DNA from: a virus
Lineage: Duplodnaviria > Heunggongvirae > Uroviricota > Caudoviricetes
Virus record (IMG/VR): IMGVR_UViG_2861043448_000001
DNA length: 22,628 nucleotides
Direction: 5' to 3' (one strand)
Of this stretch, positions 6,336 to 22,200 are shown piece by piece. Numbering within the stretch: position 1 is the stretch's first letter; each line of letters begins with the position of its first letter. A program made the translations under genes and the position numbers. Below the pieces are notes generated by a model. That model searched no databases, was not told the DNA's origin, and saw nothing but the letters and a program-made list of their open reading frames with translations.

Positions 6336-6403
6336 CGAGATTAAAGTGCATTAGTTCAGATGCAAATTGACATTTTGTGGCACAGGGTAGAGCTAGCGTG
6401 GTT

Positions 6404-6427
6404 GTCCGCTTTGTGCCAAGAGCGGAC
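6404..6427 (+). repeat. Palindromic repeat, type H2, copy A (gtccgctttgtgccaagagcggac)
   Basis: 7-bp stem gtccgct/agcggac. Near-identical to the copy at 7620-7643. The flank tttgca...ggggg is also shared with that copy. Confidence 0.8.
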
Positions 6428-6464
6428 TTTGCAAAATGGGGGTTATTTCAATCAAAACGTAACG

Positions 6465-7409
6465 TCACAACCAGCCGACGCTCTCTCGCCATTTATAATT
6501 AGTAACTTTATCATTTTCGCTTATTTTTTTAGATATAGAGCGCGGCTCTCTTCCTAGATACTCAGATATTTCTATCGGGGACAAATCAAAATCAACAAGC
6601 ATGACTCTAAGTTTTTCCATTTCCTTTAAAGTCCAAGGCTTGCCATAATTTTCATAAAGAGATACCTTATGCTCCCTGATAGTTCGCTTTCTCTGAGTTT
6701 CACTTTCCCTCTGAAAAATCTCGCTTTTAAATTGTGAACGGAACTCTTTACAGAAGTTGTTATCAGTTTTTTTGTTATATAGATTGCTAAAAATAAGCTG
6801 GGATGCCGGGTCTAAATCAGGTGTGTTAATAATGAAAACTTTGACCTTTTCCATATAGGGATATTCAATTTTACCCAATATGCTTAATTGCTTTATATTA
6901 AAAAAACCTCTCAAATCAAAAGATTTAATGAGCTTTGATTGGATTACACTTTCAATCCTGCTTGCATTTAAATAACAGTACTTTGCCATTGGAAGGGCCC
7001 ATACTACCAGTTGAGGAATATATTTTTCTAATGCAATGCTCTGCCAATCAGTATCAAAGGTTTGGCTTTTTGCTAGCATGTTTTTCGGCAAATCAGAATA
7101 CATTGTGGTAGATGCCCATATCTTATAATCATTCGCCAAGGCTTGATAGTATTTTGTGTGGTTATGAATTTTATAAGCTGACATGAAGCGATAAACGTCT
7201 TCGTCGTGACCAGCGTCGTAAATTGTTCGATTTCCTCTAAGATAACCGTCGTAATGTTCGGTTATCCTTCTACCTACATTACAACTTACCCCAACGTAAA
7301 CCACACGACTGAAAAGTCCTTTATGGACAATAAGATAAACTCCGCTACAGCCAGATTTCCTGGCCTCTGATAGAGAACCTAAAAATCTCCATTCCATAAT
7401 TAAATCCAT
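6465..7409 (-). CDS. GIY-YIG family nuclease with a C-terminal helix-turn-helix-like domain
   Basis: 314-codon ORF. The N-terminus reads GVYLIV-x9-VVYVGVSCNVGRRITEHY (GIY...YVG...R..H pattern), with a later glutamate in SRIESVIQ. The C-terminus reads PWTLKEMEKLRVML..SPIEISEYLGREPRSISKKI, which looks Myb/HTH-like. The gene is AT-rich. Confidence 0.8.
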   Translation of the reverse strand: MDLIMEWRFLGSLSEARKSGCSGVYLIVHKGLFSRVVYVGVSCNVGRRITEHYDGYLRGNRTIYDAGHDEDVYRFMSAYKIHNHTKYYQALANDYKIWASTTMYSDLPKNMLAKSQTFDTDWQSIALEKYIPQLVVWALPMAKYCYLNASRIESVIQSKLIKSFDLRGFFNIKQLSILGKIEYPYMEKVKVFIINTPDLDPASQLIFSNLYNKKTDNNFCKEFRSQFKSEIFQRESETQRKRTIREHKVSLYENYGKPWTLKEMEKLRVMLVDFDLSPIEISEYLGREPRSISKKISENDKVTNYKWRESVGWL

Positions 7410-7577
7410 AATTATTGCTACTGTTTTTGTTTATCATTATTTTCGTGAAACTTCAACAATTTTATCCAAAAGCTAAGGGCAAAGACTTATATAATTATAC
7501 TTGTCATCGTTAGCGATTATATAGAGTAGTGGCGCTGACCTGCTCCCTGGTGATTCACACAGAATGCTGTTAGTAAT

Positions 7578-7601
7578 GTCCGTTCCTCGCTCTCAGCGGA
7601 C
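7578..7601 (+). repeat. Palindromic repeat, type H1, copy B1 (gtccgttcctcgctctcagcggac)
   Basis: Shares the core tccgtYctcgctc..agcggac with the copy at 11791-11814 (20 of 24 positions) and the copy at 9561-9584 (18 of 24). Confidence 0.75.
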
Positions 7602-7619
7602 CTTCAGCTCAGTGATATC

Positions 7620-7643
7620 GTCCGCTCTGTGCAAAGAGCGGAC
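7620..7643 (+). repeat. Palindromic repeat, type H2, copy B2 (gtccgctctgtgcaaagagcggac)
   Basis: Perfect 9-bp stem with a 6-nt loop. Differs from copy A at two positions. Confidence 0.8.
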
Positions 7644-7956
7644 GTTGGTATGCAAGAGCCCTCCAAAAGTTGATGGTTGGTTTGCAGGGGGGCTTAAAGA
7701 AACTGCACTTATCAAGTTGAAGTTCTGTATTCAGCGAAATCGTAGCACTCTGACGATAAGTAACTCCGGTACTCCGCTCTTCGATGAAGAACCAGAGTAA
7801 TCCCCCCGAAAAACCAGCGCATCAAAATTGGATCTTCAGCGGTAGCTTATCGGCTATCGGAAGTACAGGTGTGGATTCGTGGTGAATTGCTTTGATAATA
7901 AACGATTAATACGGAAAAACGCATTAATCATTTATTAGCTTTTAGTAAACCACAAT

Positions 7957-9306
7957 TTATTCCGTTTTACATATCATAGTAGTCGATTGGAGAATATAGT
8001 TTCTGGGAATGTACTCTTCAAAGTGTTCGTCCTTTTTAAATACATGAACTACATTTGGGAATAATTGATAGTCAACAGGGTGTATAGCGTTTGGATTATG
8101 GTACATGTACATGGCTGTACACCATGGTTCTTGATAGTTAGGGTCACTTACATCGGCTGAAAATGGATGTGGGGCTGCATCCTGATCAGTTTTAACACCA
8201 CTGACGTACACTTTGAATCCACTCGCCTCTACACCTGCAAGAATTCCCATCCGGTTAAACTTAGGTATGGTTGCTTGAGTAGTGAGTAAAACGGCAGAAA
8301 CATAATTATTTTGTTCTGAGCCAAAAAAGTTCGACTTGATACTTCTATTTTCATCTGTATGTCTTTCAATAGAAATGCCTGACTCAATATCAATCCCGTA
8401 CAAATAGCTATGCAAGGCTTCGCTTGAGAAGGCCATGGACATTCTTTTTGAATAATCCTGCATTGCTATGACAAATGGTTTGTTCTTTGTATGGTTGAGT
8501 TCCCAGTAATGAACTTTCTCTGGCTCAGGGCAATGCCGGACTTTTTTTAATAAACTTCTTGCAAACTTAAAAGGCATGACATTTAGAACATGTTTTCTTA
8601 ATTCATCCATCTGTTCATCGTTAATGACTTTTCTTTCAAGAGGGGCTTCTGCTTCAGCAATGCTTACAGCCTCTACAGCAATTTCCACTCCAAATTTAGA
8701 TAGCAGAAAATCTGGTTGATTGTATTCTCTATTCATTTCAAAGTCGAGTTCATAAAATACAGCGTTCAAATATAATTCAAATAACCTTGAATTAAATGCA
8801 TCACTTTGAAAATCCCTTATAAATATTCCATCAGGATCTTTGAACCAGTATGCAAGTTCCTCAAGAACAATATATGCAGGGAAATGAAGAGGGTCTTCGA
8901 GGAGCATTTTTATATAAACATTCCTTTTTTTCGCTGGGACCTTACTCAAGAATAATGAAAAAGGTTTGGTTGATTCATCGCCTTGCATGAATGTACCATT
9001 TTGGTGCTGCGCCAGCATCTTTGGTATGTCATCGTTCAAATTATTAAGCAAGACATCCATTGAATCAAATGAAGCCAAGACGTTTATTGCTCTGAATTTT
9101 TTATCTAAATCCCGACCTAAGACTATTGCGTTAAAATCTTTATCAATATTGCATATGATTATTGTGGATAACAATGTTATCCCATTCCCCTCATATTTAA
9201 ACCAGCGTATCTCCTCAGAAAATGTCTTAAGGTAAGGTGAGCGACCGTAAAAATAAATATCAAATTGTTCTTTGCTGATCTCACTGAAGTGTAATCCTGC
9301 GTTCAT
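7957..9306 (-). CDS. Orphan 449-aa protein; a possible degenerate PD-(D/E)xK-like core; function unknown
   Basis: Long AT-rich ORF with aagga 8 nt upstream of its ATG. The segment FELYLNAVF...NQPDFLLSKFGVEIAVEAVS resembles a helix-E / PD / ExE arrangement but lacks a clear lysine. I recognise no other motif. Confidence 0.75.
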   Translation of the reverse strand: MNAGLHFSEISKEQFDIYFYGRSPYLKTFSEEIRWFKYEGNGITLLSTIIICNIDKDFNAIVLGRDLDKKFRAINVLASFDSMDVLLNNLNDDIPKMLAQHQNGTFMQGDESTKPFSLFLSKVPAKKRNVYIKMLLEDPLHFPAYIVLEELAYWFKDPDGIFIRDFQSDAFNSRLFELYLNAVFYELDFEMNREYNQPDFLLSKFGVEIAVEAVSIAEAEAPLERKVINDEQMDELRKHVLNVMPFKFARSLLKKVRHCPEPEKVHYWELNHTKNKPFVIAMQDYSKRMSMAFSSEALHSYLYGIDIESGISIERHTDENRSIKSNFFGSEQNNYVSAVLLTTQATIPKFNRMGILAGVEASGFKVYVSGVKTDQDAAPHPFSADVSDPNYQEPWCTAMYMYHNPNAIHPVDYQLFPNVVHVFKKDEHFEEYIPRNYILQSTTMICKTE

Positions 9307-9428
9307 ACCAATTCCTTTTCAATGAATAATTGGCCTTTAGGAGTGATTCCCTTTGTCTTTAATTCAGTTCTAACTAGTTCTTTAATCCAATAGCCTAAGC
9401 TCATCATGCAGTTGGATCATAAGACAAC

Positions 9429-9457
9429 GCCCTATAGTGCTCGTGATACTATAGGGC
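9429..9457. repeat. Perfect 10-bp inverted repeat with a 9-nt spacer (gccctatagt-N9-actatagggc)
   Basis: Read directly from the sequence. It lies between the divergent 449-aa gene and the recombinase gene. No T-run follows on either strand. Confidence 0.7.
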
Positions 9458-9560
9458 ATCTGACCACACTGTTAACTGGAGTAACGACTATGGCAGGAAT
9501 ACAGCATAACCAAACTCACCCCAAACTTACATAGCGCTTTCTGGCCGTGAGCATAACAAG

Positions 9561-9584
9561 GTCCACTCCTCGCTCATAAGGGAC
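9561..9584 (+). repeat. Palindromic repeat, type H1, degenerate copy D (gtccactcctcgctcataagggac)
   Basis: Keeps the termini gtcc...ggac and the core tcctcgctc. The palindrome is weakened to 4 bp. Confidence 0.6.
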
Positions 9585-9587
9585 AAC

Positions 9588-9626
9588 CATACTCAAATCT
9601 CCCACATTGCAGGAGATTTGAGTATG
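9588..9626 (+). promoter_or_regulatory. Perfect 15-bp inverted repeat (catactcaaatctcc-N9-ggagatttgagtatg) enclosing the recombinase SD and ATG
   Basis: The right arm contains GGAG (9612-9615) and the ATG at 9624-9626. It could be an RBS-sequestering hairpin in read-through transcripts, or a lox/FRT-style core site. Confidence 0.65.
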
Positions 9627-10226
9627 AACACGTCACCGTGGAACAAAGACCGTATCATAGGCCAAAAAAGACCACTTCAGATATCTCATATCTGGGGTAT
9701 CCGAATCCGACTTGAACTGGAAGGTAAAACTCGCGATTTAGCTCTGTTCAACATGGCCCTGGATAGTAAGCTTCGAGGCTGTGATCTGGTCAAACTCAAA
9801 GTATCTGATGTTGCATATGGTGGCTCTGTTTCAAGCAGAGCAACGGTGTTGCAACAGAAAACCGGTAGCCCTGTTCAATTTGAGATAACCAAAGGGACAA
9901 GAGAAGCTGTTGCTGCATTGATACAGCTTAGCAATTTGCACAGTAAAGACTTCTTGTTTCGGTCTAGGGTCGGAACTAACCAGCACATTTCAACCCGGCA
10001 ATACAACCGAATCTTTCATGGGGGGGTAGAAAAGCTTGGTCTCGAAGATTCGCTTTACAGCACACATTCCATGAGAAGAACAAAACCTTACCTGATCTAC
10101 AAGAAAACCAAGAATCTCCGGGTGATCCAACTTCTGTTGGGTCATAAGAAACTGGAAAGCACAGTCCGTTATCTGGGCATTGAAGTCGATGATGCGTTAG
10201 AGATTTCTGAATCGATTGAAGTCTAA
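9624..10226 (+). CDS. Mini tyrosine recombinase (catalytic domain only, ~200 aa)
   Basis: Catalytic signature occurs in order: DSKLRGCDL (R), LQQKTG (K), HSMRRT (HxxR), LLGHKK (H), VRYLG (Y). The ATG at 9624 sits 8 nt after aggag. The track start at 9618 is a TTG. Confidence 0.85.
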   Translation: MNTSPWNKDRIIGQKRPLQISHIWGIRIRLELEGKTRDLALFNMALDSKLRGCDLVKLKVSDVAYGGSVSSRATVLQQKTGSPVQFEITKGTREAVAALIQLSNLHSKDFLFRSRVGTNQHISTRQYNRIFHGGVEKLGLEDSLYSTHSMRRTKPYLIYKKTKNLRVIQLLLGHKKLESTVRYLGIEVDDALEISESIEV

Positions 10227-10232
10227 GGTTGT

Positions 10233-10254
10233 CAGGGCTGCAACAGCAGCCCTG
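10233..10254 (+). terminator. GC-rich hairpin after the recombinase gene (cagggctgc-aaca-gcagccctg); no T-run
   Basis: 9-bp perfect stem beginning 7 nt after the stop codon. The lack of a U-tract makes intrinsic termination uncertain. Confidence 0.3.
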
Positions 10255-10585
10255 TGCCATAAGCGGAAGTATTTAACAACTATCAGTGTTGTTCAACAGA
10301 TAAAGGGGCACTTGATTTTTTCTGTTCTCAGGAAATGATAAAAGCGCGTCGGTTCAAGCCTGCTTAACGGGAGTTTGTTAATCCTGTTGCCGTGACGTTT
10401 TGACACCATTATGATGGGGAGACACTTAATGTATGAAGGTTCCGCCACTTATACCTGTCCAACAACTGCCTCGGATGTTTCTTTGTATGAATAAGTGGTA
10501 ATGAGTAGTGAATCGCTAACAGTCACCCGAACAATCGGTGCCTGCAATTAATTCTATATTCTAAACGAGGGGGAGATTATTACAC

Positions 10586-11566
10586 ATGAAATTTAAGGAC
10601 AAGAACCTTAAGGCTCTCGCGGAATGTATCATAGGAGATAATAAGGCATTTCTGTATCGTTCAAGCAGTCACATCACTGAATTTTTCCAGGACTGCGGCA
10701 TGGATGTTACTCATGACGGATCCACTCGGTGGAAATGGACGGCCCAGAGGCTTGAAGAACTTCTTTATGAGCCACAGTCAAAGCCACATACTTTGCCGGA
10801 AAGGTTTGTTCATGTGCTCAGAACTTTAATGTTAAAAGAAGATGCAATGGATGACGATCCAGGAAGATTAAAGGCGCTTGAAGAACTGAACAAGCCTTTG
10901 ATGCGGGAAGGCTATGAGGCATTCTATGGTGACGATCGCCTTTTGTATATACGCCATACCGATACCAAAACGGTTTCAGTCAGTAATAACCCTCATCGGC
11001 CCTTAACGCCTCACGAAGTAGAATGCAGAAGGTTACTGACCGCGTTTCTTGATACCTGCTCAGAAGATGAGTTAATAGAAGATATTCTCCTTCCTTTATT
11101 CCGGCAACTTGGTTTTCACCGGATAACAGCAGTGGGACATAAAGATAAAGCGCTGGAATACGGGAAAGACATCTGGATGAAGTTCACACTGCCAACTCAG
11201 CATGTTCTTTATTTCGGCATTCAGGCAAAAAAAGGTAAGTTGGATGCGTCCGGTGCCAGCAAATCTACGAATTCAAACGTGGCAGAAATCTTCAACCAGG
11301 TACTGATGATGCTTGGCCATGAAATATTTGACCCAGAAACAAATAGAAAGGTGCTGGTAGATCATGCCTTTATCGTTGCTGGCGGAGAAATTACTAAACA
11401 GGCGAGGAACTGGCTGGGCGGGAAACTTGATGCCAGCAAAAGAAGCCAGATAATATTTATGGACCGGGAAGACATTCTTAATTTATATACTGTAAGTAAT
11501 GTACCTCTGCCAACAGGTGCTCTCATCTCTGATGATGCCGTTAAGAACGATGATATTCCTTTCTAA
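10586..11566 (+). CDS. Two-domain protein: unknown N-terminal domain plus C-terminal Mrr-like restriction-endonuclease-fold (D...QxK) domain
   Basis: 326-codon ORF with a gagggggag SD. The C-terminal half reads ELIEDILLPLFRQLGFHRITAVGH..EYGKDIWMKF..LYFGIQAKKGK...AFIVAGGEITKQA. This matches the Mrr_cat layout of helix, G-x-D-I, then (Q/E)xK. Confidence 0.75.
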   Translation: MKFKDKNLKALAECIIGDNKAFLYRSSSHITEFFQDCGMDVTHDGSTRWKWTAQRLEELLYEPQSKPHTLPERFVHVLRTLMLKEDAMDDDPGRLKALEELNKPLMREGYEAFYGDDRLLYIRHTDTKTVSVSNNPHRPLTPHEVECRRLLTAFLDTCSEDELIEDILLPLFRQLGFHRITAVGHKDKALEYGKDIWMKFTLPTQHVLYFGIQAKKGKLDASGASKSTNSNVAEIFNQVLMMLGHEIFDPETNRKVLVDHAFIVAGGEITKQARNWLGGKLDASKRSQIIFMDREDILNLYTVSNVPLPTGALISDDAVKNDDIPF

Positions 11567-11790
11567 TCAGAAGTACGTCTTTTTCTGAAAGAATACGTGA
11601 TAGGTAGCCACACCACACCTTTAGTGACCCCTTAATCTGGTAATATAACAGCCCGTATGAATGTCCGCGGCATCGCGGGCTGAAATTTATTAAAAATACT
11701 TATTCATCAAGCTGGAGTAGTTTGCCGAGTAACTGTAAACGCCCAACTTAACCGGACCATTCACTTTTAGATTGCTACCAGCAAACCAAC

Positions 11791-11814
11791 TTCCGTTTCT
11801 CGCTCAAAGCGGAC
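11791..11814 (+). repeat. Palindromic repeat, type H1, copy C (ttccgtttctcgctcaaagcggac)
   Basis: 20 of 24 positions match copy B1. Same orientation. It lies at the right edge of the island. Confidence 0.7.
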
Positions 11815-11993
11815 TAGAAGGTTAGCTTGCGTCGGACTTGGCGTATTTAAAGAAGTGCTGGTGGTAACTGGTTGTTGTGTTCCATTTCTACAAAACAAAA
11901 TCACAGAAACTATACCCAATAGTTATATTGAATCAATGATGAGACAGCCTCATATTTATCAGAACTGGTGTACGTCCAATACAGGAGGTTGTC

Positions 11994-12083
11994 GTGCTGG
12001 TTCTCAAATATGCGCTAGCTATTGCGGCTGTAATGGCAATTTATTGTCTTGCTATTGTTCTTACGGATCGCCTTTCTGATTGA
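11994..12083 (+). CDS. 29-codon hydrophobic peptide ORF (MLVLKYALAIAAVMAIYCLAIVLTDRLSD); candidate small membrane or toxin-like peptide
   Basis: GTG start 5 nt after a strong aggagg at 11983-11988. Predicted single TM helix with a charged tail. Too short for the six-frame track. It overlaps the Cys-rich 74-aa track ORF in another frame. Confidence 0.4.
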   Translation: MLVLKYALAIAAVMAIYCLAIVLTDRLSD

Positions 12084-15661: not shown

Positions 15662-15737
15662 GGCCCTTTAGCTCAGTGGTGAGAGCGAGCGACTCATAAT
15701 CGACAGGTCGCTGGGTCAAATCCAGCAAGGGCCACCA
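15662..15737 (+). tRNA. tRNA with CAU anticodon, ileX/ileZ-like (Ile2 or Met); weakened anticodon stem and unusual T-loop
   Basis: Cloverleaf fits: acceptor GGCCCTT/AAGGGCC, D-arm GCTC..GAGC, loop CTCATAA, encoded CCA. However, 27:43 and 28:42 are mismatched and the T-loop starts with G (GTCAAAT). Confidence 0.6.
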
Positions 15738-15738
15738 A

Positions 15739-15815
15739 CCGTCACCAGTTCATCAGGAAAGAGCGTCAACCCTTTAAGTTGAGTGTGCGAGGTTCGAGTC
15801 CCCGGTGGCGGTCCA
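15739..15815 (+). tRNA. tRNA-like gene, anticodon loop CCTTTAA (nominally Lys-UUU with C33); possibly a pseudo-tRNA
   Basis: Acceptor CCGTCAC/GTGGCGG with one G-U pair. T-loop TTCGAGT, with one T-stem mismatch. C replaces the near-universal U33. CCA is encoded. Confidence 0.45.
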
Positions 15816-15817
15816 GT

Positions 15818-15893
<76 letters not shown>

Positions 15894-15896
15894 TAT

Positions 15897-15971
<75 letters not shown>

Positions 15972-16263: not shown

Positions 16264-18426
16264 ATGAAATCCATGGACAAAATTTCAACGGGCATTGCCT
16301 ATGGCACCTCCGCAGGCAGTGCTGGCTACTGGTTTTTACAGCTGCTCGATAAAGTCACGCCCTCACAGTGGGCAGCAATAGGTGTGCTGGGTATCCGCAC
16401 CGGCGGGCGCGTGCTGGCGGTAAACAGCCAGACCCGGACGCTGACGCTCGACCGTGAAATCACGCTGCCATCTTCCGGCACCACGCTGATAAGCCTGGTT
16501 GACGGGCAGGGGAGTCCGGTCAGCGTGGAGGTTCAGTCCGTCACCGACGGCGTGAAGGTGAAAGTGAGCCGTGTTCCTGACGGCGTTGCTGAATACAGCG
16601 TATGGGGGCTGAAGCTGCCGACGCTGCGCCAGCGCCTGTTCCGCTGCGTGAGTATCCGTGAGAACGACGACGGCACGTATGCCATCACCGCCGTGCAGCA
16701 TGTACCGGAAAAAGAGGCCATCGTGGATAACGGGGCGCACTTTGACGGCGACCAGAGCGGCACGGTAAATGGTGTCACGCCGCCAGCGGTGCAGCACCTG
16801 ACCGCAGAAGTCACCGCAGACAGCGGGGAATACCAGGTGCTGGCCCGCTGGGACACGCCGAAGGTGGTGAAGGGCGTGAGCTTCCTGCTTCGCCTGACCG
16901 TGGCAGCGGATGACGGCCGTGAGCGGCTGGTCAGCACGGCCCGGACGACGGAAACCACTTACCGCTTCACACAACTGGCTCTGGGGAACTACAGGCTGAC
17001 AGTCCGGGCAGTAAATGCGCGGGGGCAGCAGGGCGATCCGGCGTCGGTATCGTTCCGGATTGCCGCACCGGCAGCGCCGTCGCGGATTGAGCTGACGCCG
17101 GGCTATTTTCAGATAACCGCCACGCCGCATCTTGCGGTTTATGACCCGACGGTACAGTTTGAGTTCTGGTTCTCGGAAAAACGGATTGCGGATATCAGGC
17201 AGGTTGAAACCAGCGCGCGTTATCTTGGTACGGCACTGTACTGGATAGCCGCCAGTATCAATATCAAACCGGGCCATGATTATTATTTTTACGTTCGCAG
17301 TGTGAACACCGTTGGCAAATCGGCATTCGTGGAGGCTGTCGGTCAGCCGAGTGATGATGCATCAGGCTATCTGGATTTTTTCAAAGGCGAGATAGGGAAA
17401 ACCCATCTGGCTCAGGAGCTGTGGACGCAGATTGATAACGGTCAGCTTGCGCCTGACCTGACTGAAATCAGGACGTCCATAACGGATGTCAGCAATGAAA
17501 TAACACAGACCGTCAATAAGAAACTGGAAGACCAGAGTGCAGCGATCCAGCAGATACAGAAGGTTCAGGTTGATACAAATAATAACCTGAACAGCATGTG
17601 GGCAGTGAAGCTGCAGCAGATGCAGGACGGACGCCTTTATATTGCGGGTATCGGTGCCGGTATTGAGAACACCCCTGACGGCATGCAGAGTCAGGTGCTG
17701 CTGGCAGCAGACAGGATTGCGATGATTAATCCTGCGAATGGCAACACAAAGCCGATGTTTGTTGGTCAGGGCGATCAGATATTCATGAATGAAGTGTTCC
17801 TGAAACGCCTGACGGCCCCCACCATTACCAGCGGCGGTAATCCTCCGGCATTTTCCCTGACATCAGACGGGAGACTGACGGCGAAAAATGCGGATATCAG
17901 TGGCAGTGTGAATGCGAACTCAGGAACGCTCAACAATGTCACGATTAACCAGAACTGTACGATTAAGGGCATGCTGGAGGCGACCCAGGTCAGAGGAGAT
18001 TTCGTTAAAGCTGTATCAAAAGCCTTCCCGAAAAAAGTCGGTACGTGGGGTAACACGGAAACACCAAACGGTACGGTTACAGTAACCATCAGCGATGATC
18101 ATAACTTTGACCGCCAGATTATTATTCCGCCCATTATTTTTAACGGTATAGCGTATGACGATCCGGGGAGCGGAAATAACCCAGGAGGCACGCGATACAC
18201 GGGTTATGGTTTTGAAGTTCGCAAAAACGGCGTATTAATCGCATCCAGAGAAACTAAAGGGGCCATTCCCGGTAGTTACAGTGCAGTTATTGATATGCCG
18301 AGTGGCAGGGGAAGCGTCACTCTGGAGTTTAAGATTTTCCAGAAAGGCAATCAGGGGGCAGGCAATATCACCGACTGTACGGTGATTGTGACCAAAAAAG
18401 CGGCTTCCGGCATCAGTATTCGTTGA
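16264..18426 (+). pseudogene. Deletion-generated fusion: holin 5' end (43 codons) joined in frame to the C-terminal ~677 residues of tail-tip/host-specificity protein J
   Basis: Residues 1-43 ([43 protein letters not shown]) match Stx-phage-type holin N-termini. From residue 44 onward ([29 protein letters not shown]...[17 protein letters not shown]...[36 protein letters not shown]) the sequence matches lambda J. The junction is at about 16392/16393. Confidence 0.85.
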
Positions 18427-18447
18427 AATATTTATAACCCCAATAAA

Positions 18448-18473
18448 GGGCGTCAGGAATGACGCCTTTTTTA
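18448..18473 (+). terminator. Rho-independent terminator after J
   Basis: Stem gggcgtca-ggaa-tgacgcc followed by ttttttatt. Confidence 0.8.
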
Positions 18474-18496
18474 TTGCAGAAAAGCGAGAGGTAATT

Positions 18497-18892
18497 ATGC
18501 GTAAAGTTTGTGCAGCAATTTTGTCCGCAGCCATTTGTCTGGCCGTATCCGGTGCGCCTGCATGGGCGTCTGAACATCAGTCCACGCTGAGCGCGGGGTA
18601 TCTTCATGCCCGGACCAACGTTCCCGGCAGTGATGATCTGAACGGGATTAACGTGAAATATCGTTATGAGTTTACGGATACGCTGGGGCTGGTGACGTCA
18701 TTCAGCTATGCAGGAGACAAGAATCGCCAGCTGACCCGTTACAGCGATACCCGCTGGCATGAAGATTCCGTGCGTAACCGCTGGTTCAGCGTGATGGCGG
18801 GGCCGTCTGTGCGCGTGAATGAATGGTTCAGCGCGTATGCGATGGTACTGGTGGAAGAACTATCGAGCAAGCACGTGCGAACTTGCGGGTAA
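18497..18892 (+). pseudogene. lom: Truncated lom (Ail/Lom outer-membrane protein), intact to about codon 116 and then an out-of-frame tail
   Basis: Signal peptide MRKVCAAILSAAICLAVSGAPAWA plus GINVKYRYEFTD...RWFSVMAGPSV..SAYAM parallel lambda Lom, which is ~206 aa. Similarity ends at about 18845, followed by 16 unrelated codons. Confidence 0.8.
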
Positions 18893-20655
18893 TGTATGAG
18901 CAAAAAGCTGGCCTTGCTAATACTGACCTAAACACCCTTACCGGTGAATATTCTGGTTTCTATCAACAACCAACGAGCGCTTACGCAACAGAAGAGTTAA
19001 ATTACCCAATCGGTCTGGCGGGCGCTTTAATAGTGCTCCAAACGAGAGCCAACACTGCTTCTTCCTGCGTTCAGGTGTACCACCCTTATAATAATCCGGG
19101 AATTACTTATAGACGAATATATGAAGGAGGTAGCGGTACCTGGTCTGAATGGAAGAGAGATGTATCAACAGAAAGGGTTGAAGAGGGAAAAGAAACAACT
19201 TACGTATATTCTACGTATTCTTCAGGCGCACCACGCTTACAGGTTTCCAAATCTGGTTTGTGGGGTTGTCATAATGGCACTGGCTGGTTGCCATTAGCTG
19301 TTGGGCAAGGAGGTACAGGTGCGACAACAGTAGAAGATGCGCGAAACAACTTAAGTCTTGGCGAAAGTAGCGCAGTTAAATTTAAAAACCTTACTTTAAC
19401 CGAAGCGCTCGACACGACATTAGGACTGCTTACAAAAACAGGACGAGACTGGAACACGCAGCATACTGATAACATTAATAAATTTATACCAATTGCAGGC
19501 AGTACAAACGGCCCGGCAGGCTCTATGGTTCTTGGCGGCATTCATGTTCAATTTAGTAAAAATTATGCTGTGCAGTTCGGAGGCCGCAATTCCGGTTTTT
19601 GGGGAAGAACAATTGAAAATGGAACGACACAGGAATGGAAGAAATTACTAACAGTAGACGATCTCAATTCATCTACCGATCTTGCTGTCAGGTCATTAAC
19701 CACATCTAACCCGGTAAAATCTGGCGGAGGGCGAATTGATGTCCTTGGAAGCACGTCAGACTATAGCAAAATGGATTGCTTTGTACGTGGGTTTGATAGC
19801 ACCGGTAATTCTCTCGTGTGGGCGTTGGGTTCATCAGTCGGCGTAAGTAAGATGCTATCGCTAAAAAATTTCTTTAGCGGAGCTGAGATACTGTTAAATG
19901 GTAATGACGGCGCGGTTCAACTCAAAACAGGTGCTGTTAACGGGGCTACAGCGCAGACGCTCACTATCAACAAGAATGAGGTTAACTCAACCGTTGATTT
20001 AACCCTTACAAAGCAATCAGGGACTGGTAATCGTTTTGTTTTACAGAACTCAGGTAATGCAGAACTACCGTTTTCTGTCAGGGTGTGGGGTTCCAGTACT
20101 CGACAAAACGTTTTTGAGGTTGGAACGTCTGCTGCGTATCTGTTTTATGCGCAAAAAACGTCAGCAGGCCAGTTGTTTGATGTAAATGGCGCTATTAATT
20201 GCACAACGCTGAATCAGTCATCAGACCGCGACCTTAAAGACGATATTCTCGTTATCAGCGACGCGACGAAAGCAATCCGTAAAATGAACGGATACACCTA
20301 CACGCTCAAGGAAAACGGGATGCCTTATGCTGGCGTTATTGCACAGGAAGTAATGGAGGCGATACCAGAAGCTGTGGGATCGTTTACTCATTATGGTGAA
20401 GAGTTGCAAGGTCCGACCGTTGACGGCAACGAGCTACGCGAAGAAACTCGCTATCTTAATGTTGACTACTCCGCCGTGACGGGTTTACTTGTTCAGGTCG
20501 CCCGTGAAACAGATGATCGCGTTACCGCGCTGGAAGAGGAAAACACAACGCTACGTCAAAATCTGGCAACAGCAGGCACCCGGATCAGCACTCTGGAAAA
20601 TCAGGTAAGCGAACTGGTTGCACTTGTCCGGCAGTTAACAGGAAGCGAACATTGA
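18823..20655 (+). CDS. Distal part of a side tail fibre with a C-terminal S74-type intramolecular chaperone domain; its native 5' end is missing
   Basis: Fibre-like sequence starts at about 18844 (GTGGRTIEQARANLRV). The ATG at 18823 lies inside lom in another frame. The C-terminus reads SSDRDLKDDILVI..AIRKMNGYTY...YAGVIAQEVMEAIPEAV...VDYSAVTGLLVQVARE followed by a coiled coil, which is the auto-cleaving chaperone signature. Confidence 0.75.
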   Translation: MVQRVCDGTGGRTIEQARANLRVMYEQKAGLANTDLNTLTGEYSGFYQQPTSAYATEELNYPIGLAGALIVLQTRANTASSCVQVYHPYNNPGITYRRIYEGGSGTWSEWKRDVSTERVEEGKETTYVYSTYSSGAPRLQVSKSGLWGCHNGTGWLPLAVGQGGTGATTVEDARNNLSLGESSAVKFKNLTLTEALDTTLGLLTKTGRDWNTQHTDNINKFIPIAGSTNGPAGSMVLGGIHVQFSKNYAVQFGGRNSGFWGRTIENGTTQEWKKLLTVDDLNSSTDLAVRSLTTSNPVKSGGGRIDVLGSTSDYSKMDCFVRGFDSTGNSLVWALGSSVGVSKMLSLKNFFSGAEILLNGNDGAVQLKTGAVNGATAQTLTINKNEVNSTVDLTLTKQSGTGNRFVLQNSGNAELPFSVRVWGSSTRQNVFEVGTSAAYLFYAQKTSAGQLFDVNGAINCTTLNQSSDRDLKDDILVISDATKAIRKMNGYTYTLKENGMPYAGVIAQEVMEAIPEAVGSFTHYGEELQGPTVDGNELREETRYLNVDYSAVTGLLVQVARETDDRVTALEEENTTLRQNLATAGTRISTLENQVSELVALVRQLTGSEH

Positions 20656-20835
20656 TATCCTTCAAGCCCTGAAGGAGGCTGTTCCTGGTACGTTCAGACT
20701 GTTGTTGAGCTGGAAATCGCAACGGAGGAAGAAACTTCGTTGCTGGAAGTCTGGAAGAAGTATCGGGTGTTGCTGAACCGTGTTAATACAACAACTGCAC
20801 CGGATATTGAATGGCCAGTAGCACCTATAGGGTAA
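20656..20835 (+). pseudogene. Tail-fibre assembly (tfa) 3' remnant
   Basis: It encodes ...[36 protein letters not shown], a typical Tfa C-terminus. There is no start codon. It is in frame directly behind the fibre stop codon. Confidence 0.7.
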
Positions 20836-21579: not shown

Positions 21580-21692
21580 TGGAGCACCTCAAAAACACCA
21601 TCATACACTAAATCAGTAAGTTGGCAGCATCACCGTTATTCTTTTGTTCAAAAAGTGATTTTGCTATAGGTAGGGAGTATGTTCTTGGATTA

Positions 21693-21726
21693 AGAATAAA
21701 AATCGCCATGAAAGAGCTTCATGGCG
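21693..21726 (-). terminator. Rho-independent terminator on the minus strand
   Basis: On the minus strand: cgccatgaa-gctct-ttcatggcg (9-bp stem) followed by atttttatt. Confidence 0.65.
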
Positions 21727-22200
21727 AGTACATAAACGTACAAAATATGATGAAAGTAGAGTGGCGTAAGCCACTATATTAAGATATGACAATAGCGAAG
21801 AAAAGTAAATAACATTTTATGGGCGTTTAATTGTTAATTATAAAAACTAGAGTGCCCGATATTGTTTATCTTGCTTTAAAATAATGTACTCAAACCAAAT
21901 TTTTGAGCTAAAAGCTCAAATAATATAAATGCAATGATAATGTTTAATAAGACAATTAGCTTGCTTTGTATTTTCATTTCGGAATACTGTTAAGTAACTT
22001 TGATGACACTAACAATAGATCGGAATTTTCTTAGAGTCAATGGTCACTGTTTTTGCTTGCAAAGCAAATGTTTTTGGTGGTTATAAGTTTTCTTAATATA
22101 GTCACCTATGCAACTTGTTCCGTGTGGAGATTAAAGGTTAAAATTTAATGCGAAGATGGAATTATAATATATTTTTTTATAATTAATTTAACCTTAACAT

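Follow-up and report, generated by a model that had tools for sequence, protein, structure and literature searches.

A probable site-specific-recombination platform with exchangeable cassettes, one carrying the known defence gene PD-T7-1, in a Qin-like prophage of Escherichia coli

The island and its genes

The viral DNA analyzed here, IMG/VR record IMGVR_UViG_2861043448_000001 (22,628 nucleotides (nt); hereafter the window), represents a cryptic prophage of Escherichia coli that is lambdoid and Qin-like and adjoins ynfA-rspAB. Its island of four genes encodes a GIY-YIG protein of 314 amino acids (aa), a 449-aa protein, a 200-aa tyrosine recombinase and a 326-aa protein (Table 1). An earlier note, made from the sequence alone, had proposed this island as an undescribed anti-phage system. 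Re-calling the open reading frames (ORFs) returned the same four genes at the positions given there, and the island lies where the note had placed it, between the replication side of the prophage and the hokD-Q block. On the left, the gene order is integrase, excisionase, exonuclease, ydfD, dicB, a replication gene and a DUF977 gene; on the right, the island is followed by sok/hokD, rem, DUF968, rusA, Q, three tRNAs and a degraded late region. The AT-richness described for the two minus-strand genes is also evident (GC content of 0.34-0.39 vs 0.45-0.55 in the flanks). Two additional ORFs (6360-6557 and 7564-7800) were taken as spurious because both run across the sites described below, and an Rfam scan of the island gave no match. 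Among 5,426 complete E. coli genomes, 180 contain the entire segment 6000-12200 with ~100% identity. NZ_CP032426 is one example of a carrier of this array. Sequence comparison suggests that positions 6404-11814 of the window probably represent a three-cassette array of a site-specific-recombination platform that occupies the slot between the DUF977 gene and hokD.

Table 1. Coordinates of the genes, sites and structural elements of the island (arms and centres of sites are separated by hyphens).
Feature	Position	Strand	Site sequence	Remark
T1 site A	6404..6427	+	GTCCGCTTT-GTGCCA-AGAGCGGAC	left boundary of the array
GIY-YIG/Myb-HTH protein, 314 aa	6465..7409	-		cargo of cassette 1; N-terminal GIY-YIG nuclease domain, C-terminal Myb/SANT-like helix-turn-helix (HTH)
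T2 site B1	7578..7601	-	GTCCGCTGA-GAGCGA-GGAACGGAC (minus-strand reading)	right boundary of cassette 1
Junction spacer, 18 nt	7602..7619			leads from T2 to the next T1
T1 site B2	7620..7643	+	GTCCGCTCT-GTGCAA-AGAGCGGAC	left boundary of cassette 2
AlpA-family HTH pseudogene fragment	7815..7895	+		in cassette 2; RefSeq annotation
PD-T7-1, 449 aa	7957..9306	-		cargo of cassette 2; PADLOC, phrog_8571
T2 site C	9561..9584	-	GTCCCTTAT-GAGCGA-GGAGTGGAC (minus-strand reading)	right boundary of cassette 2
Perfect 15-bp stem	9588..9626	+		pairs Shine-Dalgarno (SD) sequence and ATG of the recombinase gene
Tyrosine recombinase, 200 aa	9624..10226	+		catalytic domain only; Pfam PF00589 Phage_integrase, E 2e-17
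Degenerate T1	10245..10268	+	AGCAGCCCT-GTGCCA-TAAGCGGAA	left boundary of cassette 3
326-aa protein	10586..11566	+		cargo of cassette 3; C-terminal domain with PD-(D/E)xK-like D195...Q213-x-K215 motif
T2 site D	11791..11814	-	TTCCGTTTC-TCGCTC-AAAGCGGAC (plus-strand reading)	right boundary of the array

Two classes of recombination-type sites

The palindromes of the island are sites of 24 base pairs (bp) that consist of a 9-bp arm, a 6-bp centre and a 9-bp inverted arm (9-6-9), with the overall consensus GTCCGCTnn-GWGCSA-nnAGCGGAC. Two classes can be distinguished: T1 sites present the arms GTCCGCTnn and nnAGCGGAC around the centre GTGCCA, and T2 sites present the same arms around the centre GAGCGA. 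Five strong copies are found in the window (A, B1, B2, C and D), vs 0-0.05 chance matches expected. The earlier note had described one shared repeat that separates all gene units. Here, the palindrome proved to be real, but its copies split into two classes and two orientations, and the boundary between the recombinase and the 326-aa gene holds only a degenerate copy. This degenerate T1 overlaps a 9-bp stem-loop at 10233-10254; the comparison loci L008 and L011 have a T1 at the equivalent position, and the recombinase homology in other genomes stops at this point (window 10267-10275). An origin of the palindromes from repetitive extragenic palindromic (REP) or bacterial interspersed mosaic (BIME) elements, enterobacterial repetitive intergenic consensus (ERIC) elements or dif-like sequences was rejected on sequence reading.

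Every cassette is composed of a T1, the cargo and an inverted T2, and neighbouring cassettes meet at a T2-spacer-T1 junction. The array therein reads T1 (A), GIY-YIG gene, T2 (B1), spacer, T1 (B2), AlpA fragment and PD-T7-1, T2 (C), recombinase, degenerate T1, 326-aa gene and T2 (D), with the recombinase gene located inside one such junction, between a T2 and the degenerate T1. The centre of site B2 (GTGCAA) is one base off the canonical GTGCCA, and the recombinase-side arm of site C is the variant typical of recombinase-proximal sites. In other loci, the T1 centre of the PD-T7-1 cassette reads GTGCCA (L311 and L100) or GTACCA (L097).

A scan of 397 kb of enterobacterial and E. coli loci centred on homologues of the recombinase identified 101 sites, compared to none in shuffled sequences. 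Their centres were GAGCGA in 51 cases and GTGCCA in 36, with only 3 hybrids, and 91 of the 101 sites showed the canonical orientation relative to the recombinase gene. The spacer between T2 and T1 measured 15-18 nt across 22 junctions; one extra value of 1 nt looks artefactual. Using the enterobacterial consensus, no sites were found in distant recombinase clades, and the detection of Pseudomonas sites required a clade-specific motif.

Variable content of the prophage slot

Exact T1 and T2 patterns each occur in at least 120 IMG/VR contigs, and 223 viral loci were fetched around such matches. The window's own outer flanks are present in 40 of these loci. All 40 contigs, as well as strain A20 and the window, share the T1 outer arm and centre (GTCCGCTTT GTGCCA) and the T2 centre and outer arm (TCGCTC AAAGCGGAC), i.e. 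these parts of sites A and D are invariant in this slot. The DNA enclosed by these parts varies among the 40 contigs: 13 different cassettes of 1.0-4.1 kb were distinguished, and every one has inner arms of its own. At least 7 of these 13 alternatives match known or candidate defence models, namely PD-T7-1, a PD-T7-1-like gene, AbiH, a Tmn-like gene, PDC-S33, PDC-S39 and a NUDIX gene matching PDC-S07, and one further cassette yields a weaker Hp2-like match. Reduced forms of the slot exist as well. E. coli A20 (L085, 1854-2125) contains both slot sites with only ~225 bp between them; since the inner arms and inner flanks of this filler are those of a 2.7-kb AbiH cassette in L315, it is probably an internally deleted copy. 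The common relatives that carry QueH (L086, ~1840-1870) have the outer arm of site A only, and their homology with the window stops inside the centre of site A, at window 6419.

The breakpoints lie in or beside the site centres and coincide with the centres in more than 14 slot variants; by this comparison, the crossover point maps to the 6-bp centres. The polarity from T1 to T2 is kept in all 40 slot variants and in three contexts of the GIY-YIG cassette. An invertible switch was rejected, as the T1 and T2 centres differ and the polarity is constant. The breakpoints also bear on a simpler origin, in which the island is a decayed fragment of a CP4/P4-like island that was captured by illegitimate recombination and contains a truncated integrase and incidental repeats. 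Such decay would account for the AlpA pseudogene fragment, for the presence of the same cassettes in CP4-like islands and for the fixation of the array in this clone. However, breakpoints matching site centres in more than 14 variants are not in line with incidental repeats, the AlpA fragment belongs to the mobile PD-T7-1 cassette itself, and the recombinase family is uniformly ~200 aa long, with intact catalytic residues across Proteobacteria. This origin is largely refuted by the catalytic conservation, a Klebsiella cassette described below and the slot breakpoints, and is considered extremely improbable.

Among the 223 fetched loci, 167 cassettes represent 164 protein clusters, the commonest of which are mostly without a known family. 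Recombinase-centred arrays elsewhere include SIR2-HerA, DRT1 and a Lit-type peptidase, mixed with GNAT, LysR, MFS and other accessory genes. The platform is a general accessory-gene shuttle that is rich in defence genes and not a defence system itself. The slot comparison agrees with the earlier description of the island as accessory and cassette-like, placed in a prophage slot of variable content, with nuclease-type cargo, a mini recombinase and a repeat at the unit boundaries. Related prophages reveal a hypervariable slot, and the gene set is not a fixed core of the phage family, a possibility that had been named beforehand as counting against the proposal.

Single cassettes in unrelated replicons

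The GIY-YIG cassette (window 6404-7601/7613) is also found in CP4-like islands of ~90 further E. coli genomes. It adjoins a type I restriction-modification/DarTG cluster in one such island (L087) and lies directly beside the recombinase in another (L088). In both, its inner arms and inner flanks are identical to those of the window and its outer arms are different, so that the inner arm and inner flank of site B1 move along with the cassette. In the recombinase-side T2 of L088, the inner arm is that of B1 and the outer arm is of the recombinase type; this hybrid would be the product expected from recombination between B1 and C.

The PD-T7-1 cassette occurs alone in the same prophage slot in L311, where it spans 1,965 bp, the length of window 7620-9584, with identical inner arms. 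In Klebsiella P2-like prophages, an insert between tail genes is 98% identical to window 7624-9576; this common unit of 1,955 bp includes the AlpA fragment. The insert is flanked by T2 and T1 with outer arms unlike those of the window, and gene calling over the 6 kb fetched to its left and right showed no recombinase gene. Between the same junction and recombinase, other E. coli genomes have a gene for a 366-aa hypothetical protein in place of PD-T7-1. The novelty for PD-T7-1 is that the gene travels as a 1,965-bp cassette bounded by T1 and T2; no difference at the protein level was found. Taken together, the comparisons demonstrate, at the level of sequence, the exchange of cassettes between unrelated replicons.

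These observations can be compared with the notion that the four genes together encode a single new anti-phage system of several components, namely nuclease effectors and a recombinase. The genes are indeed adjacent and occur together in the 180 E. coli genomes, and three of the four present nuclease-type features. Nevertheless, the units are found apart and in other combinations (L311, Klebsiella P2-like prophages, CP4-like islands), the genes lie on both strands with their own sites around each, the recombinase adjoins unrelated cargo in hundreds of genomes, and PD-T7-1 is effective as a single cloned gene (PMC9519451). One joint system is therefore highly improbable, and the cargos function independently of one another. 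The initial proposal of an undescribed anti-phage system does not hold, since the units travel separately and one of them is the validated PD-T7-1; this same gene confirms that defence cargo is present in the island.

The 200-aa recombinase

The recombinase shows the catalytic residues of tyrosine recombinases, with R51, K79, H148, R151, H174 and Y183 conserved in at least 97% of 43 diverse members. Relatives were confirmed at 547 loci of GTDB species genomes and occur across Proteobacteria. The best 80 of these 547 loci are 60-98% identical and the protein is always ~200 aa long; on the basis of this uniform length, a truncated integrase was rejected. No close relative was detected among 50,697 sequenced phage records. 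The recombinase unit (window ~9562-10270) recurs with ~94% identity in ~920 E. coli genomes and also on plasmids, its ends falling within the sites, and the cargo beside it is unrelated between these genomes and in many other Proteobacteria. Because of this unrelated cargo, the recombinase is assigned to the cassette platform and is not a defence effector. In enterobacterial loci, a variant-arm T2 is positioned ~40 nt upstream of the recombinase start and a T1 ~20 nt past its stop. In a Pseudomonas clade, the recombinase is bracketed, in the same layout, by inverted half-sites of another sequence (TGGCCGGTTAGCGAC), which indicates that the sites change together with the enzyme. Of 46 loci of the family, 41 are predicted to form such a stem between the SD sequence and the start codon of the recombinase, and its sequence differs between clades.

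Two side observations concern units with reduced content. In a Pseudomonas/Stutzerimonas clade (L033, L037, L043, L046, L055 and L061), the recombinase at ~10001-10590 lies between identical inverted half-sites TGGCCGGTTAGCGAC, usually without a cassette array, and L046 contains two recombinase units ~3.7 kb apart. Furthermore, ~500 Klebsiella plasmids carry only a 74-bp remnant that matches window 9570-9643 (e.g. NZ_CP041374.1, 56628-56701), which spans the T2 centre, the recombinase-side arm, the SD stem and the first recombinase codons.

The recurrence of the recombinase unit could also be explained by a small selfish element similar to an insertion sequence (IS), consisting of the recombinase and two inverted half-sites, in which case the T2-spacer-T1 junctions would be miniature derivatives and the cassettes trapped DNA. 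The 707-bp unit, which is found at many loci with ~94% identity and ends sharply within the sites, the Pseudomonas recombinases that usually stand alone between inverted half-sites (two copies in L046) and a 66-nt junction that recurs in ~700 E. coli genomes would agree with this explanation. It is opposed by cassettes that move with their own inner arms into contexts without a recombinase or a shared junction, by single cassettes that replace each other between fixed outer arms and by spacer sequences that vary from junction to junction. A purely selfish element appears unlikely, although both views overlap, as recombination at the centres makes both sides modular.

A further question is whether T1 and T2 are substrates of another recombinase, e.g. 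the host XerCD or a helper integrase, with the 200-aa protein as a passenger or regulator. Most cassettes lack a recombinase in cis, and the pdif modules of Acinetobacter plasmids provide a precedent for a host enzyme that serves plasmid-borne modules. On the other hand, the sites are unlike dif or cer on sequence reading, the recombinase gene has a fixed position between T2 and T1, the bracketing sites change with the recombinase clade and the catalytic residues are strongly conserved. These features render a passenger role quite unlikely and favour the 200-aa protein as the enzyme of the cassette platform.

Cargo proteins

The 449-aa protein of cassette 2 had been regarded as not assignable to any named defence family. 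The PADLOC run suggested in the earlier note identifies it as PD-T7-1 (PDLC04073; E 7.3e-157), with residues 8-447 aligned to positions 2-448 of the 452-position profile and thus over its full length; PD-T7-5 is the second match (E 3e-40). PD-T7-1 is an already known, validated single-gene anti-phage defence. The system was selected from strain ECOR46 and labelled 'Nuclease', is effective when this one gene is cloned and confers stronger protection against T-even phages than against T7 (Vassallo et al., 2022; PMC9519451). The protein of the window has the same length as the ECOR46 protein, and from the match to the hidden Markov model and this equal length we infer its identity to RCQ85672.1. 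The ECOR46 accession is not among the 15 members listed in an exact-sequence cluster look-up, and a PDB sequence search with the 449-aa protein gave no match. A promoter-like site within the cassette corresponds to a consensus match only.

In the protein of cassette 1, the residues that characterize GIY-YIG nucleases (G23-V24-Y25, Y38-V39-G40, R48, H52 and E153) are invariant or nearly so among 37 sequences. By its Pfam score alone, the 314-aa protein lies under the cut-off of the GIY-YIG family (15.8 vs 22.6 bits), and no match was obtained in a PDB sequence search.

The 326-aa protein of cassette 3 gave no match in Pfam, NCBIfam, PHROGs, PADLOC or PDB by sequence and profile searches, and its N-terminal domain has no detectable relatives. 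The search for homologues yielded 3,877 proteins, and the best 120 listed measure 288-329 aa, nearly all of them ~326 aa, and are mostly ~70-75% identical across distant phyla. These 120 originate from Enterobacterales, Vibrio, a cyanobacterium, Verrucomicrobium and an Omnitrophica metagenome-assembled genome, and represent an unusually conserved family that is covered by no Pfam family. D195, Q213 and K215 are invariant in the family alignment. A profile search of 1.8 billion representatives returned 1,180 relatives, and the distant ones show no Pfam domain apart from one marginal Mrr_cat match (E 0.044). The predicted structure is good for the N-terminal domain only; the C-terminal domain, with a predicted local distance difference test (pLDDT) score of ~45, presents an order of secondary-structure elements compatible with a PD-(D/E)xK core. 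The earlier label 'Mrr-like' is backed by the conserved D...QxK motif and the single marginal match in a distant relative. A PD-(D/E)xK-like nature of the protein is plausible. The GIY-YIG/Myb-HTH protein and the putative PD-(D/E)xK protein are plausible candidates for single-gene defence or exclusion nucleases.

Proposed mechanism and its implications

In the proposed mechanism, the 200-aa recombinase would cut and rejoin DNA within the 6-bp centres. As the centres of T1 and T2 differ at two positions, T1 would pair only with T1 and T2 only with T2, and the best reading is that the two classes rarely if ever recombine with each other. A double crossover (T1 with T1 and T2 with T2) between two molecules would swap the intervening insert and result in cassette exchange, which fits the fixed outer arms and varying inner arms of the slot variants. 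A single crossover between like sites within one array could excise or integrate a circle of cassette and junction and thereby build arrays, which fits the observed arrays and the hybrid T2 in L088. The stem at the start of the recombinase gene would limit translation on read-through transcripts and probably keeps it low. Both the catalysis by this particular protein and the mutual incompatibility of the two centres are what we infer from the sequences.

Several points weigh against this explanation. All evidence for recombination is comparative, and no recombination was directly observed. A recombinase lies nearby in only 3 of the 223 fetched viral loci; most prophage-borne cassettes are thus without one, so that the enzyme would need to work in trans, and another recombinase may be responsible instead. 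Several sites of the window are imperfect, including the GTGCAA centre of B2, the degenerate T1 at 10245 and the degenerate inner arm of D. If the model is right, the single-base change in B2 should impair exchange in this lineage. All 32 contigs that were read with an identical PD-T7-1 protein share one prophage context, apart from IS insertions and deletions. The array appears frozen in this lineage, i.e. fixed in its clone with some imperfect sites, and this copy may now be immobile. In addition, cargo elsewhere includes the non-defence genes GNAT, LysR, MFS, HAD and ChaC, and a fold search with the model of the 326-aa protein, whose C-terminal domain is weak, gave no match.

On a wider scale, it is tentatively proposed that the T1/T2 sites and the 200-aa recombinase constitute an unrecognised, widespread natural cassette-exchange system of Proteobacteria, distinct from integrons and Xer modules. 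It would shuttle defence and accessory genes among lambdoid and P2-like prophages, CP4-like islands and plasmids, and possibly provide a mechanism for part of the hotspot turnover. The means by which defence genes move from one mobile element to another, unrelated one are not settled; here, the exchanged units have explicit 24-bp boundaries and a candidate enzyme, and one validated defence gene was found in three kinds of context with the same boundaries. If the recombinase is active, the platform would join integrons as a second natural platform for gene cassettes, pairs of T1 and T2 could serve as a simple sequence flag for the mining of new defence and accessory genes, and cassette exchange would gain a tool in the form of a compact recombinase of natural origin whose two sites are incompatible with each other. 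For the window itself, one gene is accounted for by PD-T7-1, which leaves two single-gene nuclease candidates.

Other features of the window

Between site D and sok/hokD, a putative Cys-rich ORF of 74 aa with a GTG start is located at 11855-12079. Strain A20 has the same stretch; QueH-type prophages contain other DNA here and become homologous to the window again from position 12061. At 15662-15968, just downstream of the Q antiterminator gene, RefSeq annotates three tRNA genes (Ile, Thr and Gly). In the degraded late region (~16264-20700), a RefSeq holin fragment abuts fragments of tail-tip, Lom and S74-peptidase tail-fibre genes. The composition of the window includes a GC-rich stretch at 16400-17200 (0.63-0.64) and a very AT-rich right end (GC content of 0.27-0.30 at 21600-22200).

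Comparison with known systems

No description of this recombinase/site system was found in open-access papers and preprints, including searches by the site sequences, and the cassette platform appears to be undescribed so far. Integrons resemble it in that a tyrosine recombinase gene lies beside an array of short cassettes with mostly one or two genes, in that the cargo is hugely diverse and includes anti-phage systems, and in that cassettes also occur without a recombinase nearby, as clusters of attC sites lacking integron-integrases (CALINs). However, integron integrase models match the 200-aa recombinase with E values of 0.002-0.003 and 17 bits only, compared to NCBIfam cut-offs of 265-435. 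The attC sites of integrons are imperfect palindromes of 57-141 nt that recombine as folded single strands, whereas the platform has 24-bp, duplex-type 9-6-9 sites of two classes and, unlike integrons, flanks each cassette with two inverted sites. Integron cassettes are co-oriented, mostly promoterless and served by the common promoter Pc, while the cargo of the platform faces both ways and has no common promoter. Moreover, the recombinase gene of the platform resides inside the array, in contrast to the integron arrangement with attI beside intI.

The pdif (Xer) modules of Acinetobacter plasmids are likewise bounded by inverted short sites with 6-bp centres, and the same module is found in different replicons, as is the case here. 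Their sites are dif-like 11-6-11 sequences for the host enzymes XerC and XerD, and the sites of the platform are unlike dif or cer. Neighbouring pdif modules share one site, whereas the junctions of the platform comprise two sites and a spacer with two centre classes, and a dedicated mini-recombinase is linked to the sites. The FimB/FimE invertases are also tyrosine recombinases of ~200 aa that act on short inverted repeats, but the corresponding family NF007371 matches the recombinase only weakly, at 27 bits compared to a cut-off of 222, and does not include it.

A closer parallel is engineered recombinase-mediated cassette exchange (Cre/lox or Flp/FRT with heterospecific sites), in which the cassette lies between two sites that are unable to recombine with one another, and the insert is replaced by a double crossover that leaves the outer half-sites where they were; the slot variants show this very pattern. 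That design stems from the laboratory, whereas the platform is natural; we know of no natural system described as working in this manner.

The hotspots of P2-like phages, P4-like satellites and lambdoid prophages resemble the slot in that conserved phage genes enclose alternative defence genes. For the P2 and P4 hotspots, a study from 2026 considered transposons and homologous or illegitimate recombination as possible and left the exchange mechanism unresolved (PMC13586616). Here, the boundaries are explicit recombination-type sites, and the lambdoid slot and the P2-like slot are linked by the same PD-T7-1 cassette.

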